From Betaproteobacteria bacterium (GTDB lineage Bacteria; Pseudomonadota; Gammaproteobacteria; Burkholderiales; Rhodocyclaceae): a stretch of 64,000 nucleotides of DNA. The notes beneath the pieces were generated by a model. It was given only the letters and a program-made list of their open reading frames with translations, was not told the origin of the DNA and ran no database searches. Below are positions 28,693 to 64,000 of the stretch, piece by piece. The stretch's first letter is position 1. Every line of letters begins with the position of its first letter. Location: assembly GCA_009782565.1 (NCBI GenBank), contig WRIU01000012.1, positions 5,070-69,069 on the forward strand, written 5' to 3'. Position numbers and translations under genes: made by a program.

Positions 28693-28768
28693 TGGTAGGG
28701 GCACAAGGGCTCGAACCTTGGACCTACGGATTAAGAGTCCGCTGCTCTACCAACTGAGCTATACCCCC
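28693..28768 (-). tRNA. tRNA-Lys (anticodon CUU), CCA encoded.
   Basis: The reverse complement GGGGGTATAGCTCAGTTGGTAGAGCAGCGGACTCTTAATCCGTAGGTCCAAGGTTCGAGCCCTTGTGCCCCTACCA folds as a 76-nt cloverleaf. The anticodon loop is CTCTTAA. Confidence 0.93.
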
Positions 28769-32170: not shown

Positions 32171-32201
32171 CAAAAAAAAACGCAGTCCGGTCAGGACTGC
32201 G
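32171..32201 (-). terminator. Intrinsic terminator ~200 nt downstream of rppH.
   Basis: On the minus strand the hairpin ACGCAGTCC-TGACC-GGACTGCGT is followed by T9. Confidence 0.6.
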
Positions 32202-32397
32202 TTAAATCCACACCAAAGATGAGGGTGGAGGAGACACCATGAGACCGCGCACTGCGCGCGATCAAACCGGCGCGGATTATGGGTCTAAACCCACATAAAA
32301 CGCAAGGTCTTTATGCGCCTCACCCAAAACTTCACCTCAATAATGACAAGTAGGACGAAGAACCCCGCACCGCAAAAGGGAAAGCCGCCTGTTGCGT

Positions 32398-36842: not shown

Positions 36843-39137
36843 ATGGATCAGGATTTCATCGCCGCCGCGCTCGAATATCATCGTGCGCCGACGCGCGGGA
36901 AAATTTCGGTTGTGCCGACCAAGAGCTTGACCAATCAGCACGATCTCGCGCTGGCGTATTCGCCGGGGGTTGCAGCGGCGTGCGACGCGATTGTTGCCGA
37001 TCCGGAACAGGCGCGCGAATTGACCAGCCGGGGCAATCTCGTGGCGGTCGTCACGAACGGCACGGCGGTGCTTGGCCTGGGGAACATCGGCCCGCTCGCT
37101 TCCAAGCCGGTGATGGAAGGCAAGGGATGCCTTTTCAAGAAATTCGCGGGCATCGACGTGTTCGACATCGAACTGGACGAACAAGACCCTGACAAGCTGA
37201 TCGACATTATCGCTTCGCTCGAACCGACCCTGGGCGGCATCAACCTGGAAGATATCAAGGCTCCCGAATGTTTCTACATCGAGCAGAAGCTGCGCGAGCG
37301 CATGAAAATCCCGGTCTTCCACGACGACCAGCATGGAACCGCCATCATCTCGGCGGCGGGCCTCATCAACGGCCTGAAGATCGTCGGCAAGGAAATAGAC
37401 AAGGTCAAACTCGTGTGTTCGGGCGCGGGTGCGGCGGCGATTGCCTGCCTTGACCTCATGGTGGGCTTGGGGCTGAAGCGCGAAAACGTTTTTGTCTGCG
37501 ATTCGCGCGGCCTGATCTACCAGGGACGCGAACCGGACATGGAGCCGACCAAGGCGCGTTATGCACAAGCGTCCGACGCGCGTACCCTGGGGGATGCAAT
37601 CGTTGGCGCGGATGTCTTCCTTGGGCTTTCCAAGGCGGATTTGCTCAAACCTGAGATGGTGGCGAAGATGGCCGACAGGCCGTTGATTTTCGCGCTGGCT
37701 AATCCGATCCCCGAAATTCTGCCCGCCGAGGCTAAGGCTGTCCGCCCGGATTGCGTCATCGCCACGGGTCGTTCGGACTATCCTAACCAGGTCAATAACG
37801 TCCTCTGCTTCCCCTTCATTTTCCGGGGTGCGCTCGACGTGGGCGCGACCACCATCAACGATGAGATGAAGCTCGCCTGCGTCAAGGCCATTGCCGAACT
37901 GGCTCAGGCCGAGCAAAACGACATCGTAGCCTCGGCCTACGGAGGCGAGGAACTGAGCTTCGGGCCGGATTACATCATTCCCAAACCGTTCGATCCGCGC
38001 CTGATCGTCAAGATTGCGCCAGCGGTTGCGAAGGCGGCGATGGACTCAGGCGTCGCCCGGCATCCGATCAGCGACTTGCACGCTTATGCTGCCACCCTGA
38101 ACGATTTTGTGTACCGCTCCGGTATCGTCATGCGGCCCGTGTTCGCGGCAGCCAAGAGCGTACGAAATGAGCTCAAGCGCGTGCTTTACGCTGAAGGGGA
38201 AGATGAGCGCGTCATTCACACTGCGCGCGTCGTGATTGAAGAAGGGCTTGCCCGGCCCGTGCTGATTGGCCGTCCTTCCGTGATCGAAGCGCGCATCAAA
38301 AAAATCGGCCTCAACCTTGTTTCCGAACGTGACTTCGACGTGATCGACCCGGAACAAGATCCGCATTACCACGAACTATGGAATGAGTATTACAGACTGA
38401 TGTCGCGTAATGGCGTCACGCCTGTTTTGGCCAAGGTGCGAGTGCGCCGCGACTCCACGCTGTACGGCGCGTTGCTGTTGCGCCAGGGTTATGCCAACGC
38501 GCTCGTATGCGGCACGTTCGGTTCTCACGCCTACCACCTCCAGCATGTACGCGACGTGATCGGCCTTAAACCGGGGGCGAGCCAATTCGCGGCGATGGAT
38601 TTGCTCATGATGCCTGGCCGTGTGCTGGCGATTACCGACACGCAGGTCAACGAGAACCCGACCGCCGAGGAAATCGCCGAAATTGCGCTGGCAGCGGCAT
38701 CCGAATTACGCAGCTTCGGAATCGAGCCGCGTGTGGCATTGGTGTCGCATTCCAACTTCGGCAGTTCCCAATCGGCTTCGGCCCGCAAGATGCGCGCCGC
38801 CAGCGAGATACTGCGCCGTACCGCACCGACGCTTGAATGCGATGGCGAAATACGCGCCGACGTGGCGCTGTCTCCCGGAATTCGCGCTGTACAGCACCCC
38901 GATTCAACCCTCAAGGACGAAGCCAACCTGCTGGTGATGCCCAATCTGGACGCGGCCAATATTTCGTTCAACTTGTTGAAGGTTGCGTATTGCGACGGCG
39001 TCACAGTTGGCCCGATCCTGCTTGGCCCGGCTAAACCTGTGCATGTCGTTACCCCTTCGGCCACCGTGCGGCGGCTGGTCAACATCACCGCGCTGGCGGT
39101 GGTAGACGCGGCGGGGTCGAATACGGGAAGCAAGTAG
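36843..39137 (+). CDS. maeB: NADP-dependent malic enzyme (malic enzyme plus PTA-like domain).
   Basis: The N-terminal block [30 protein letters not shown] is present. NAD(P)-binding GAGAAA and a C-terminal phosphate acetyltransferase-like half are also seen. Confidence 0.95.
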
Positions 39138-39139
39138 CT
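38952..39139. repeat. Left copy of a 188-bp inverted repeat (the functional maeB 3' end).
   Basis: Its reverse complement matches 50442-50629 with 3 mismatches by manual alignment. Confidence 0.85.
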
Positions 39140-39204
39140 CCGATGAAAGTCGAGCCTGTGTTGTCGTGCAGGATCGTTTCGTAATCTTATTTACGGATAA
39201 GCAC

Positions 39205-50426: not shown

Positions 50427-50441
50427 TCTGGACATTCACCG

Positions 50442-50629
50442 AAGCTACTTGCTTCCCGTATTCGACCCCGCCGCGTCTACCACCGCCAGCGCGGTGATGT
50501 TGACCAGCCGCCGCACGGTGGCCGAAGGGGTAACGACATGCACAGGTTTAGCCGGGCCAAGCAGGATCGGGCCGACTGTGACGCCGTCGCAATACGCAAC
50601 CTTCATCAGGTTGAACGAAATATTGGCCG
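50442..50629 (-). pseudogene. Inverted duplicate of the last 61 codons, stop codon and 2 nt of maeB (right copy of the inverted repeat).
   Basis: It is identical to the reverse complement of 38952-39139 except for 3 substitutions: two synonymous and one Leu to Met in the maeB frame. There is no upstream maeB body. Confidence 0.85.
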
Positions 50630-50769
50630 CAAGCCAGCCTGAGCGCGCAAACGCTGCAACTCACCGATATGCTCCCTGAGGCTTGTAACGGTCTCTCCCT
50701 TCAGGTTGCGATAGGTGATGTAGATGCCGCCGATCAGGCCACGTTCGGCCAATGGTTTCAACTCATTGA

Positions 50770-58280: not shown

Positions 58281-58499
58281 AGTATGTCAGTTAGATTTCG
58301 TTAATCTCATGAATTATAAAGATTTTTTCATCTTCATGTCTAAGCGGGCGCAGCGGTAGCGACCCCGGCGACACGGACGCTGAAAGCAGTGGCGTCTACG
58401 CGAAGTCCGGGTCGCGCATAAGTTCGGAGATGTCGATCATTTCACCACCTGCCATTAAACACGTTTGACGTTAATAACGCACTGCATTACTATTGCGCC

Positions 58500-58781
58500 A
58501 TGTCGATTCAATCCTTCTACTGCCCTGACACAAAAGCCTTGTTCGAGCGTCAGCGCGTCGCCCAGTTTGCCAATATTCAGGCCGTAGCGCGGCGCAAGCT
58601 GGAGCAGTTGCACATGGCTGGGCGGTTGGACGACCTGCGTGTACCGCCCGGCAACCGGCTGGAAAAACTCTCCGGCGACCGGGAAGGCCAGTGGAGCATC
58701 CGCATCAACGACCAGTGGCGTGTTTGCTTCGTCTGGACAGGGGAAGATGCAGAATGCGTCGAAATCATTGACTACCACTGA
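58500..58781 (+). CDS. higB: HigB-type (RelE superfamily) toxin, a plasmid-maintenance killer protein.
   Basis: The protein is 93 aa with PPGNRLEKLSGDREGQWSIRINDQWRVCF, which is typical of this family. Confidence 0.88.
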   Translation: MSIQSFYCPDTKALFERQRVAQFANIQAVARRKLEQLHMAGRLDDLRVPPGNRLEKLSGDREGQWSIRINDQWRVCFVWTGEDAECVEIIDYH

Positions 58782-58793
58782 CGGAGAGCACTC

Positions 58794-59102
58794 ATGAACA
58801 AGAAGCTCAGCCCCATCCATCCCGGCGAAATCCTGCGGGAAGAATTCCTGATACCGCTCGGCATCAGCCAATACCGGCTCGCCAAGGAAATTGGCGTTCC
58901 TGCACAGCGCATTGGTGAAATCGTAGCAGGGCGGCGAGCCATCACCGCCGATACCGACCTGCGCCTGTGCCGCTTCTTCGGCCTTTCCGAAGGCTATTGG
59001 CTGCGCGGGCAGGCGCGTTTTGACACGGAAACGGCCAAGGACGCCCTCGCGTCGCAACTGGCGAAAATCACGCCGTGGCACATGGAAACCGCTCACGCCT
59101 GA
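58794..59102 (+). CDS. higA: HigA-type HTH antitoxin.
   Basis: The sequence HPGEILREEFLIPLGISQYRLAKEIGVPAQRIGEIVAGRRAITADTDLRL is present. The gene starts 12 nt after higB. Confidence 0.9.
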   Translation: MNKKLSPIHPGEILREEFLIPLGISQYRLAKEIGVPAQRIGEIVAGRRAITADTDLRLCRFFGLSEGYWLRGQARFDTETAKDALASQLAKITPWHMETAHA

Positions 59103-59311
59103 GCAGACAGCCATCATTTGTCACCACACCAGCGGATTTCACGGGTTAGAGGGCAGCACCCATCTTAGATACTTACGTTCAAGGGGAATGCCCGTCGCTG
59201 AACCAGTCTGTCTGAAGCGATCTTAGTCACTTTGCCGAATTTTTAGACAAAACAGCCTGTAAACCGCGTAGTTATCACTGTCACAGAAACCATCGTATTA
59301 TTATTGCGAGT

Positions 59312-60264: not shown

Positions 60265-62277
60265 ATGCCGCAACCACCCGCCCCCGTGTTCAACCCGATC
60301 ACCGGCGCGCTCCGCGCGCTTGCCATCGACGCCATTCAAAAAGCCAACTCCGGGCATCCCGGCGCACCGCTCGGCATGGCGGAAATCGCCGAAGTCCTCT
60401 GGCGGCGCACGTTGAAACACAACCCCGCCAACCCCGATTGGCCAGACCGCGACCGCTTCGTCCTCTCCAACGGGCACGGTTCCATGCTCATCTACGCCCT
60501 GCTCCACCTCACGGGCTACGATCTTTCCATCGACGACCTTAAAAACTTCCGCCAGTTCGGCTCCAAAACCGCCGGGCATCCGGAAACCGGCCACACGCCC
60601 GGCGTGGAAACCACCACCGGCCCGCTTGGGCAAGGCATCGCCAACGCCGTCGGTTTCGCGCTTGCGGAAAAACTGCTTGCCGCCGAATTCAACCGCCCCG
60701 GCCACACCATCGTCGACCACCACACCTACGCCTTCATGGGCGACGGCTGCCTGATGGAAGGCGTCTCCCACGAAGCCTGTTCCCTCGCGGGCACGCTCGG
60801 CCTCGGCAAACTGATCGCCTTTTACGACGACAACGGAATTTCCATCGACGGCCACGTTGAAGGCTGGTTTACAGACGACACGCCAAAACGCTTTGAAGCC
60901 TACGGTTGGCAAGTCATCTCCGACGTTCCCGGCCACGACCCCCAGGCCATCGAGGCGGCGCTGGCCGCTGCGCGAAAGGAAACCCGGAAACCCTCGCTCA
61001 TCTGCTGCAAGACCGTCATCGGCATGGGTTCCCCCAACAAGGCGGGCAGCCACGACTGCCACGGCGCGCCATTGGGCGCGGATGAGATTGCCGCCACGCG
61101 GGAAGCCATCGCTTGGCCGCATTCCCCGTTTGAAATTCCCGCCGACGTCTACGCCGCCTGGGATGCACGGCAAAAAGGAAAATCGCTCGAAGCCGACTGG
61201 CAACAGCGGTTCGATGCCTGGCGCGCCGCCTTCCCCGAACTTGCCCTTGAGTTCGAGCGCCGCGTCATCCGGCGGGAGCTTCCCGCCGACTGGCTTCAGG
61301 TTGCAGCGCAGACCATCGCCACTTGCAAGGAAAAAGCGGAAAACATCGCCACCCGCAAAGCCAGCCAAAACACGATAGCCGCCCTGCTCCCTCATCTGCC
61401 GGAACTCTTCGGCGGCTCCGCCGACCTTGCCGGTTCCAACCTGACCTTCGTCAAGGGCAGCCGGGGCATGACGGCTCTTGAGGGCGGCAACTACTGCTAC
61501 TACGGCGTGCGCGAATTCGGCATGACCGCCATTGCCAACGGGCTGGCGCTCCACGGCGGCCTGATTCCCTACACCGCCACCTTCCTCGTCTTCTCCGACT
61601 ATGCCCGCAACGCCATCCGCATGGCCGCGCTCATGCGCCAGCGGCAAATCATGGTCTACACCCACGATTCCATCGGCCTGGGTGAAGACGGCCCCACGCA
61701 CCAACCCGTCGAACATATCCCAAGCCTGCGCCTGATTCCCAACCTCGATGTCTGGCGGCCATGCGACGCCGTGGAAACGGCAGCAGCCTGGATTGCGGGC
61801 ATCGAGCGCACGGACGGCCCCACCCTGCTTGCCCTCTCCCGGCAGAACCTGCCCACCGTCACAGGCAACATCGACGCGGACGACATCAAAAAAGGCGGCT
61901 ACATCCTCGCCGAAGCCGAAGCCGGAGCGCCTCAAGCCATACTCATCGCCACCGGTTCCGAAGTCAAGCTGGCGCTCGACGCCAAGGCCGCCCTGGAAAA
62001 AGAAGGCATCCCCACCCGCGTCGTCTCCATGCCCTCCACCAACGTCTTCGACCGCCAAAGCCCGGAATACCGCCTCAAAATCCTCGGCCAGCACGTCCGC
62101 CGCATCGCCATCGAAGCCGCGCACGGCGATTTCTGGCGCAAATACGTCGGTCTGGATGGCTCAATCATCAGCATCGACACCTTCGGCGCTTCAGCCCCGG
62201 CGGGGAGGCTGTTTGAGCATTTCGGGTTTACTGTCGGGCATGTGGTGAAGGCAGTGAAAGGCGCAACAAGCGCATAG
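60265..62277 (+). CDS. tkt: Transketolase.
   Basis: The protein is 670 aa with [30 protein letters not shown] and [13 protein letters not shown]. Confidence 0.97.
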
Positions 62278-62307
62278 CCAAAACACAAAGAGAAATAAAC
62301 CGGTGGC

Positions 62308-62413
62308 AAAATAAAACAGTCCGGCAGGTTTCCCTGCCGGACTGCTGGATACGAATTGCGTTAAAAACGCATTTCTTATTGTAGCAACGGCTCTCACCCC
62401 GGATAGCCACAAT
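62308..62413 (-). ncRNA. tracrRNA: Candidate type II-C tracrRNA: a 36-nt anti-repeat, a nexus-like hairpin and a terminator.
   Basis: The minus strand reads ATTGTGGCTATCCGGGGTGAGAGCCGTTGCTACAATAAGAAATGCGTTTTTAACGC...CAGTCCGGCAGGGAAACCTGCCGGACTGTTTTATTTT. The core CCGTTGCTACAATAAG matches my memory of the N. meningitidis tracrRNA. It lies directly upstream of, and divergent from, cas9. Confidence 0.75.
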
Positions 62414-62420
62414 ACTGAAA

Positions 62421-62449
62421 ATTATGAGGGAGGAAGACATGCTTGGCAA
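62421..62449 (-). promoter_or_regulatory. Putative sigma70 promoter of the tracrRNA.
   Basis: On the minus strand TTGCCA, a 17-nt spacer and CATAAT lie 7 nt before the first A of the anti-repeat. The -35 box lies inside cas9 codons 2-4 on the other strand. Confidence 0.4.
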
Positions 62450-64000
62450 GCCCACCGATCCGCTCACTTTTGGTTTCGACATTGGCATTGCCTCGGTCGG
62501 CTGGTGCGTACTCGGCGAAAAACATATCGTTGATCTTGGTGTGCGTTGCTTCGACAAGGCAGAAACTGCCAAGGAAGGCGAATCGCTCAATCTCGCCCGC
62601 CGTACCGCCCGCCTCATGCGGCGGCGTCTGCGTCGCCGCGCGTGGCGATTGACCAAACTGGCTCGCCTATTGAAACGCGAGGGGCTGATCGACAGCGTCC
62701 AAACCATACACCAACCTGCCGCAAAATCGCCGTGGCAGCTTCGTGTAGAGGGGCTGGATCGAAAGCTCGCGCCACAGGAATGGGCACAAGTTCTTTACCA
62801 CCTCTGCAAGCATCGCGGTTTTTACTGGATCAGCCGTGCGGAAGAAAAAAAAGCCGAAGCAGACGGGGAAGGCGGCAAGGTCAAGAAGGGTTTGCAGGAT
62901 ACCAAGCGCCGCATGAATGAAAAAAATTACCGAAGCGCGGCTGAAATGGTGCTGAAGGAATTTCCCGATGCACAGCGCAACAAGCAGGGTGAATACAGCA
63001 AGGCACTTTCCCGCCTTCTGCTTGCCGAAGAACTCGTCTTGCTGTTCAAGCGCCAGCGCGAATACGGTAACCCCCACGCAACGCCCGATCTCGAAACGCA
63101 CATTGTTGGATGCGGCGACCGCAAAAGCGGTTTGTTCTGGGAACAAAAACCGGCTCTATCCGGGGAAAAACTGCTGAAGATGCTTGGACGCTGCACTTTT
63201 GAAAAAAGCGAATACCGTGCTCCCAAGGCCAGTTTCACTGCCGAACGCCACGTCTGGCTGACACGCCTCAACAATCTGCGTATCGTCGTCGGTGGAAACG
63301 CACGTCCGCTCAATGAAGCCGAACGCAGCATTGCCTTGCCCCTACCCTATCAACAGGCCAGTGACTTTACTTATAAGCAGTTGAAAAGCGCCTTGTTCAA
63401 GGCGGGTTTATTGCCTGAAAACGTCAGATTCACCGGGCTGGCTTATCCAACACAGCAAACCGAAAACAAAGCCAAAGACCCGGAATCTGAACGGCTAGTC
63501 AAACTTCCCGCTTGGCAGGAACTACGCAAAACTCTTAAAGAAAAAGGGCTTGAAACCGAATGGCAAAGTATCGCCGGAGCCGCCGCCGGAGGACAACCCG
63601 AACTGCTCGACCAAATCGCCTGGACACTCAGTGTCTTCAAGGACGGCGATGAGGTTGAACGAGAATTACGCAAACTCTCCCTACCGGGTGGAGAAAAGAT
63701 GATCGAGGCACTCAGCGAAATCAGCTTCGACAAGTTTCACAATCTGTCTCTCAAGGCGCTCCGCAAGATCGTTCCTCACATGGAAGCCGGCTTGCGCTAT
63801 GACGAGGCATGCGAAAAAGCTGGTTATCATCACAGCCAGTTATTCAAAGCAGGAGAAGGCCAGTACAAATACCTGCCTCCTTTCTACTCTGGCCGTGATA
63901 AAGATGGCCGCATGGTATTTGATGACAAGGAGGACATTCCACGTAATCCGGTTGTTCTTCGTTCACTCAATCAAGCGCGCAAAGTGCTGAATGCGTTGGT
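62439..64000 (+). CDS. cas9: Type II-C CRISPR-associated endonuclease Cas9. Only the N-terminal ~520 aa are present, because the gene is truncated by the window end.
   Basis: Manual translation gives MLGKPTDPLTFGFDIGIASVGWCVLGE.. (RuvC-I). It also shows an Arg-rich bridge helix (RRTARLMRRRLRRRAWRL) and ends in ..IPRNPVVLRSLNQARKVLNAL just before RuvC-II. The frame is open from 62439 to the window end, and GAGGGAGGA precedes the ATG. Confidence 0.95.
   Translation, partial: MLGKPTDPLTFGFDIGIASVGWCVLGEKHIVDLGVRCFDKAETAKEGESLNLARRTARLMRRRLRRRAWRLTKLARLLKREGLIDSVQTIHQPAAKSPWQLRVEGLDRKLAPQEWAQVLYHLCKHRGFYWISRAEEKKAEADGEGGKVKKGLQDTKRRMNEKNYRSAAEMVLKEFPDAQRNKQGEYSKALSRLLLAEELVLLFKRQREYGNPHATPDLETHIVGCGDRKSGLFWEQKPALSGEKLLKMLGRCTFEKSEYRAPKASFTAERHVWLTRLNNLRIVVGGNARPLNEAERSIALPLPYQQASDFTYKQLKSALFKAGLLPENVRFTGLAYPTQQTENKAKDPESERLVKLPAWQELRKTLKEKGLETEWQSIAGAAAGGQPELLDQIAWTLSVFKDGDEVERELRKLSLPGGEKMIEALSEISFDKFHNLSLKALRKIVPHMEAGLRYDEACEKAGYHHSQLFKAGEGQYKYLPPFYSGRDKDGRMVFDDKEDIPRNPVVLRSLNQARKVLNAL

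Follow-up and report, generated by a model that had tools for sequence, protein, structure and literature searches.

The right edge of the window (the whole 64-kb stretch of DNA analysed here) very probably represents the left end of a Neisseria-type type II-C CRISPR-Cas9 locus. The open frame at this edge was confirmed to encode the N-terminal half of a Neisseria-type type II-C Cas9 whose gene is intact, and the gap between it and the upstream transketolase gene (tkt) holds a predicted tracrRNA gene, which lies on the minus strand and would be transcribed away from cas9. The features of the locus are listed in Table 1. Type II-C systems are characterized by a minimal cas9-cas1-cas2 operon without csn2 or cas4.

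Table 1. Features of the cas9 locus in the window, with the cas9 motifs that lie on the overlapping contigs L057 and L058
Feature	Position	Strand	Remark
Transketolase gene (tkt)	60265..62277	+	Context gene outside the CRISPR system; TIGR00232, 954 bits (cutoff 682)
Predicted tracrRNA gene, ~110 nt	62305..62414	-	Ends inferred from the -10 box (5') and the terminator T-run (3')
tracrRNA intrinsic terminator	62307..62346	-	14-bp stem 62346-62315, T-run 62314-62307
tracrRNA stem-loop 1	62353..62375	-	3' of an AAG linker, which itself follows the anti-repeat; from the fold
Anti-repeat ATTGTGGCTATCCGGGGTGAGAGCCGTTGCTACAAT	62378..62413	-	Complement of the relatives' repeat with an internal bulge
Predicted tracrRNA promoter, TTGCCA-17 nt-CATAAT	62421..62449	-	Overlaps the cas9 ribosome-binding site, start codon and codons 2-4
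cas9 ribosome-binding site GAGGGAGGA	62426..62434	+	Read from the sequence; 4-5 nt 5' of the ATG
cas9, codons 1-520 of 1113	62439..64000	+	RuvC-I, bridge helix, REC lobe and the segment directly before RuvC-II
RuvC-II motif VHIEMARD	cas9 residues 530-537		On L057/L058, outside the window
HNH motif EVDHALPYSRS	cas9 residues 612-622		On L057/L058, outside the window
RuvC-III motif DRHHALDA	cas9 residues 755-762		On L057/L058, outside the window

An earlier note on this DNA, written from the letters and a list of open reading frames (ORFs), had described a hidden type II-C cas9 at the window edge, and its reading of the frame proved correct. Starting from the ATG at 62439, 520 codons run without a stop up to base 64000, the last base of the window, and the ribosome-binding site named in the note is present before the ATG. 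A second in-frame ATG is present at 62424, 15 nt upstream; because it has no ribosome-binding site, 62439 appears to be the better-supported start. The frame is absent from the ORF list of the window, whose lister omits frames running off the window end. The gene is hidden only in this sense, however, as an identical protein has already been annotated as Cas9 at NCBI (MCL1826208.1, from a Betaproteobacteria MAG), where it adjoins transketolase MCL1826207.1 on a 71,861-base contig. All three Cas9 landmarks named in the note are encoded by the frame: the RuvC-I motif FGFDIGIASVGW (residues 11-22), whose catalytic Asp, D14, aligns with the DIGIASVGW motif of NmeCas9; the Arg-rich bridge helix LARRTARLMRRRLRRRAWRL (residues 52-71), which aligns with MARRLARSVRRLTRRRAHRL of Nme; and the block NPVVLRSLNQARKV (residues 503-516).

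Profile searches placed this N-terminal part within the Cas9 family. It matched TIGR01865 with 342.5 bits (cutoff 100; E 6.7e-102) over model positions 2-503 of 1070, and the Cas9 alpha-helical lobe was found by Pfam. The best solved-structure matches of the 520 residues were NmeCas9 chains (6JDV, 6JDQ, 8JA0 and others; E 3.3e-94), followed by other II-C Cas9s and then by SaCas9 and St1Cas9. The alignment with NmeCas9, which the earlier note had suggested for placing the protein within the II-C clades, paired residues 10-519 with 13-491, and the identity of this N-terminal half was 45.5% over aligned pairs.

Exact-match scans of genome contigs and metagenome contigs with the window DNA gave no match to its own continuation. 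A look-up of contigs encoding exactly the window's transketolase returned three, including two metagenome contigs, L057 (ENA ERZ27257320, 36.4 kb) and L058 (JGI 3300002505). Over 13,736 and 13,528 bases, respectively, they match the window with 100.000% identity (0 mismatches and 0 gaps), and they reach 2.8 kb beyond base 64000. Judging from this perfect 13.7-kb overlap, the window's own contig probably continues in the same way. On both contigs, cas9 comprises 1113 uninterrupted codons, of which the first 520 give the window translation. The full-length protein matches TIGR01865 with 766.7 bits over model positions 2-1070 of 1070, the Pfam models HNH_4 (7.9e-19), RuvC_III (8e-19), Cas9_RuvC and Cas9_a, and the NmeCas9 structures with an E-value of 1e-241 (residues 10-1100 against 12-1068). 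The earlier note had named downstream stops or frameshifts, or the absence of HNH and RuvC-II/III, as grounds for rejecting a cas9; the two contigs have an open frame and all of these motifs. A type II cas1 (TIGR03639, 279 bits) follows directly after cas9. RuvC-II, HNH, RuvC-III, the PAM-interacting domain and cas1 are all described here from the overlap-identical contigs, and none of them lies inside the window.

Beyond cas1 the locus departs from that of its relatives, in which cas9-cas1-cas2 lead into an array with a repeat length of 36 nt and a spacer length of 30 nt. More than 25 related loci are homologous to L057 in DNA up to exactly L057 position 16407, the position of their cas1 stop, and cas2 begins 1-25 nt after that stop in the related loci. 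On L057 and L058 the cas1 frame runs for 18 additional codons into 138 nt of unrelated DNA. These 138 nt match the left ends of IS21-family elements in 124 plasmid records with approximately 75-78% identity. Furthermore, istA begins 112 nt after the match start in an annotated IS21 example, the same offset as that of the MELLGKIR ATG in L057. We conclude that an IS21-family element is located exactly at the cas1/cas2 junction of the window strain. Both short-read assemblies break inside the element, and L057, a k141 contig, ends 138 nt into it, as would be expected at a multi-copy repeat. The earlier note had expected all remaining parts of the system beyond the window; HNH and cas1 were indeed found there on the identical contigs, but cas2 and the array were not recovered. 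The cas2 of the window strain was not found among the best 120 of 1362 Cas2 homologues. Four contigs with a 90-91%-identical Cas2 belong to other samples, and their DNA identity to L057 is only 82-86%. Recovery of cas2 failed because the IS21-family element follows cas1 and the assemblies end there. The 64-kb window itself contains no CRISPR array.

The insertion, which is found in the window strain and not in its relatives, shows that the locus has been disturbed, and adaptation in this strain may be impaired because the element sits at the cas1/cas2 junction. It is possible, if somewhat unlikely, that the locus is a decaying or crippled remnant, in which cas9 and the tracrRNA gene are intact but cas2 is gone or silent because of the IS21 insertion, and the array perhaps cut off or deleted; such a system would no longer acquire spacers and might lack guides. 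The abrupt end of homology at the cas1 stop and cas2 start of the relatives, the IS21-like 138 nt with the matching istA offset and the failure to find cas2 among the 120 best homologues would all agree with such a remnant. In a close relative (L004), cas9 carries a nonsense codon, an in-frame stop at codon 88, and therefore decay of cas9 does occur in this lineage. Nevertheless, intergenic IS insertions often spare downstream genes, and both cas2 and the array may lie past this element of about 2.5 kb, while the Cas2 search covered the best 120 of 1362 matches. In addition, Neisseria-type crRNAs start from repeat-internal promoters, which would make interference independent of read-through from cas1, and cas9, cas1 and the tracrRNA gene show no damage. 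We favour a Neisseria-type II-C locus with an interruption after cas1. Because the IS element interrupts the locus of this strain, a complete CRISPR island past the window should not be assumed.

The gap between the tkt stop codon (62275-62277) and the cas9 ATG is 161 nt long, in agreement with the distance of about 160 bp given by the earlier note, which had missed the tracrRNA in it. Anti-repeats of type II-C systems, whose minimal gene set is cas9-cas1-cas2, are mostly located upstream of cas9 (PMC3737331). What was found in this gap is an anti-repeat followed by two stem-loops and a terminator, in a separate transcription unit with its own predicted promoter, as expected of a tracrRNA. The unit bracketed by the minus-strand promoter and terminator has a length of ~110 nt, which is the size of the primary Nme tracrRNA (PMC3737331). 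A consensus scan of 62100-62600 detected the promoter as the only sigma-70-like site (10 of 12 matches; 0.2 sites expected), and the anti-repeat is the single such sequence in the 64-kb window. The predicted RNA folds with a minimum free energy of -50.9 kcal/mol (z = -6.9). Its segment GGGGUGAGAGCCGUUGCUACAAUAAG shares 22 of 26 bases with GAAAUGAGAACCGUUGCUACAAUAAG, a published NmeCas9 tracr segment (PMC9674691, PMC6594998). An Rfam search of the intergenic RNA gave no match at gathering thresholds and only chance-level ones up to E 10; this absence does not weigh against a tracrRNA, because tracrRNAs are known to vary too much for family models based on sequence (PMC3737331). We also considered and rejected a scaRNA-like element of the kind found in Neisseria (PMC13431127), as the sequence here is the complement of the repeat and not a mimic of it, and matches the Nme tracrRNA.

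We also considered that the intergenic element might give no expressed tracrRNA and might instead combine the tkt terminator with a degenerate orphan repeat, or form a leader of the cas9 mRNA on the plus strand. A hairpin does lie directly after the tkt stop, the anti-repeat resembles a repeat when read on the plus strand, and Rfam has no matching family. However, this explanation is highly improbable in view of the strand and the conservation of the element. The terminator scan found a T-run after the hairpin on the minus strand only, the strand that also carries the sole promoter-like site, and the -35/-10 pair upstream of the anti-repeat is kept in all relatives examined. The minus sense folds more stably in 28 of 31 loci and has more G-U pairs (32 versus 12). 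Moreover, the element accompanies cas9 into genomes without a neighbouring tkt, and the anti-repeat and linker are nearly identical to those of the published Nme tracrRNA.

Comparison of related loci further supports the predicted tracrRNA. The element has the same position and strand in every relative examined (~30 related loci), and 30 of 33 relatives have the T-rich tract. In an alignment of 28 loci, the anti-repeat core is invariant (100% conserved), and compensatory changes occur in 11 of the 22 pairs of stem-loop 1 and the terminator stem. The sequence of stem-loop 1 varies among loci and its self-complementarity is retained; for the three pairs of columns 43-45/76-78, both sides have changed with pairing kept in 9, 4 and 14 sequences. 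Repeat and anti-repeat also co-vary locus by locus (157 versus 130.9 +/- 5.2; reached by 0 of 10000 shuffles), and the anti-repeat of each locus fits the repeat of its own array better than the repeats of other loci. The relatives' 36-nt repeat reads GTTGTAGCTCCCTCTCTCACCCCGGA..GCTACAAT on the strand opposite to cas9. With crRNA repeats of these relatives, the window anti-repeat is predicted to form duplexes of -47.5 to -55.2 kcal/mol, compared with -15.8 +/- 3.5 for shuffled controls, and the duplex has an Nme-like internal bulge. The crRNA repeat of the window strain is predicted to be GTTGTAGCTCCCTCTCTCACCCCGGATAGCTACAAT.

The conserved DNA extends upstream of cas9 to the tracrRNA gene. Only in the window strain, L055 (92-96% DNA identity to the window) and L004 does tkt adjoin cas9 upstream. 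In relatives without tkt beside cas9, DNA homology to the window begins at ~62294 or 62375, which shows that the tracrRNA gene belongs to the mobile module. The earlier note had let the island begin with cas9 at a core-gene boundary. This was right in substance, but the left edge of the island is ~25-30 nt after the tkt stop, at the tracrRNA gene rather than at cas9. For the Neisseria system, too, a minimal mobile element has been described as the carrier (PMC13431127).

By homology with NmeCas9, the parts of this system would be expected to work as follows. The tracrRNA anti-repeat would pair with the repeat part of each crRNA, and Cas9 would bind the crRNA:tracrRNA duplex and the stem-loops via its Arg-rich bridge helix and REC lobe. 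The complex would then search DNA for a PAM beside a match to the spacer, where the HNH and RuvC sites would cut both DNA strands. Expression of the tracrRNA and the Cas9 protein, nuclease activity and a PAM requirement may all be expected by homology. In this clade, crRNA transcription is probably antisense to cas9 and begins at repeat-internal promoters, as in Neisseria. In Nme the array is transcribed opposite to the cas operon (PMC3737331), and II-C crRNAs start from repeat-embedded promoters (PMC12477760). In the relatives, a TACAAT sequence is conserved at the 3' end of the repeat, where Nme has its repeat-embedded promoter.

Compared with Nme1Cas9 (PDB 6JDV, 6JDQ, 8JA0), the protein has the same domain order, nearly full-length alignment and the same catalytic motifs. 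The RNA parts are also alike: the ~110-nt tracrRNA contains the anti-repeat/linker GAGA(A/G)CCGUUGCUACAAUAAG followed by two stem-loops, the relatives' array has Nme-like repeat and spacer lengths, its repeat agrees with that of Nme at 20 of the first 24 bases, and its crRNA sense, judged by homology with the Nme repeat, runs opposite to cas9. On the other hand, the N-terminal half shares only ~45% identity with Nme1Cas9, the protein is 1113 aa long versus 1082 aa, and it has small insertions in the REC lobe (e.g. after residues 128 and 222) and before RuvC-II. The tracrRNA stem-loops show no sequence relationship to the Nme ones, cas1 is followed here by an IS21 element, and the organism is an uncultured betaproteobacterium; its closest relatives have termite-gut-like MAG names. 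Much closer are the Cas9 orthologues of Rhodocyclales-type Betaproteobacteria (Azonexus, Dechloromonas, Propionivibrio, Methyloversatilis, others and termite-gut-like MAGs), with 65-90% amino acid identity. Their loci have a divergent tracrRNA gene, cas9, cas1, cas2 and array, a plan identical to that of the window strain as far as it was recovered there, with near-identical repeats in the arrays of the relatives and the invariant anti-repeat core, whereas the genomic neighbourhood differs and the IS21 insertion is confined to the window strain. That the frame in the window might be part of a pseudogene or a truncated fragment, as the 520 visible codons, the in-frame stop of L004 and the many partial database relatives could suggest, is scarcely credible, since the contigs identical over 13.7 kb carry a 1113-codon cas9 with all catalytic motifs and the partial database entries owe their truncation to contig ends rather than to stop codons.

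The system is thus an ordinary member of the well-known Nme-type II-C family, and as one more uncharacterised Nme-type Cas9 orthologue it has little importance beyond correct annotation. What is new here is the tracrRNA gene inside the window, the proof of an intact cas9 and the interruption by IS21. A 1113-aa Cas9 with an easily predicted tracrRNA may be of modest use for the mining of compact Cas9s. In more general terms, ORF lists miss frames that run off a window edge, and in II-C loci the short gap upstream of cas9 is worth checking for a tracrRNA gene.

The predicted tracrRNA promoter and the start of cas9 are interleaved: the cas9 ribosome-binding site and ATG are located between the -35 and -10 boxes of the opposite-strand promoter. 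Because this promoter is built into the translation-initiation region of cas9, any cas9 promoter must fall inside the tracrRNA gene. No plus-strand promoter of the sigma-70 type was detected for cas9 by the consensus scan of 62100-62600, and the sequence CACAAT (62408-62413) is only a weak candidate. It may be that cas9 is transcribed from a start inside the tracrRNA gene or by read-through from tkt, the latter being conceivable since no T-run follows the hairpin on the plus strand. Mutual interference or antisense coupling between cas9 and tracrRNA transcription, as a circuit balancing Cas9 against its RNA partner, seems quite unlikely; if true, it would bear on the role in driving II-C spacer acquisition that was recently found for apo-Cas9. 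The type II-A system of Streptococcus pyogenes is autoregulated by a long-form tracrRNA, tracr-L (PMC12477760). Both systems have a tracrRNA gene beside the cas9 promoter region, where RNA and protein expression could be coupled; the likeness is one of gene placement. A cas9 ATG within the tracrRNA promoter spacer was also found in the closer relatives L003, L004, L005, L007, L008, L010 and L042-L044.

The ribosome-binding site and start codon of cas9 are overlapped by the tracrRNA promoter on the opposite strand, and this overlap is kept at the same position in the closer relatives among the contigs carrying related cas9 loci (L003, L004, L005, L007, L008, L010 and L042-L044). Judged from this layout, the overlap implies that cas9 and tracrRNA may be subject to promoter competition or antisense overlap. 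Further downstream, beyond the window, a metagenome contig of the same strain (L057) carries an IS21-family element exactly at the cas1/cas2 junction, through which the cas1 frame becomes 18 codons longer; this element is also the point where both short-read assemblies break.

In L004 (MAG WRKX01000001; 84% amino acid identity), which has the same tkt-cas9 junction as the window and an array of about 105 repeats, an in-frame stop was found at cas9 codon 88, where the window encodes Gln. Either this cas9 is a pseudogene or the stop arose through a sequencing error. Two other MAG contigs, L055 and L056, whose names resemble termite-gut samples, both end about 100 nt into cas9, which suggests that strains in their source communities differ in whether they carry the island or in its sequence. 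In addition, two contigs of MAG Cu122P4bin11 (L001 and L002) match the window tracrRNA and the 5' half of cas9 with identical blast statistics, and one of the pair stops inside cas9. Either the locus is duplicated in this MAG or strains are mixed in the bin.

Among 581 spacers from related type II-C arrays, one, from an uncultured Rhodocyclaceae bacterium (L022), matches the window at 27 of 30 bases. The matched site lies in a segment of approximately 1 kb that encodes a HigB-like toxin and an HTH antitoxin, and no counterpart of this segment is present in the closely related L055. The segment has the appearance of a mobile toxin-antitoxin cassette, specific to the strain, that is targeted by the CRISPR of a relative.

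With regard to other features of the window, two distant stretches of about 203 nt with 96.5% identity form an inverted repeat, which was detected as a second blast match of L057 164-366. The Rfam matches, a Betaproteobacteria toxic small RNA and a tRNA, are consistent with a betaproteobacterial host.

Coordinates of features in the window and related contigs
Feature	Location	Strand	Source
tRNA	window 28696-28768	-	Rfam
Betaproteobacteria toxic small RNA, RF02278	window 32172-32236	-	Rfam, 62.6 bits
Inverted repeat	window 38952-39154 and 50428-50630		blast
Toxin-antitoxin segment	window about 58286-59285		
Spacer-matched site	window 58398-58427		
tracrRNA promoter/cas9 start overlap	window 62421-62449		
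IS21-family element	L057 16408-16545 (window coordinates 66672-66809)		
cas9 codon-88 stop	L004 10262-10264		
Contig end within cas9	L055 10101 (window position 62539)		
Contig end within cas9	L056 6148		
Match to tracrRNA and cas9 5' half	L001 8894-10537		blast
Match to tracrRNA and cas9 5' half	L002 9925-11568		blast
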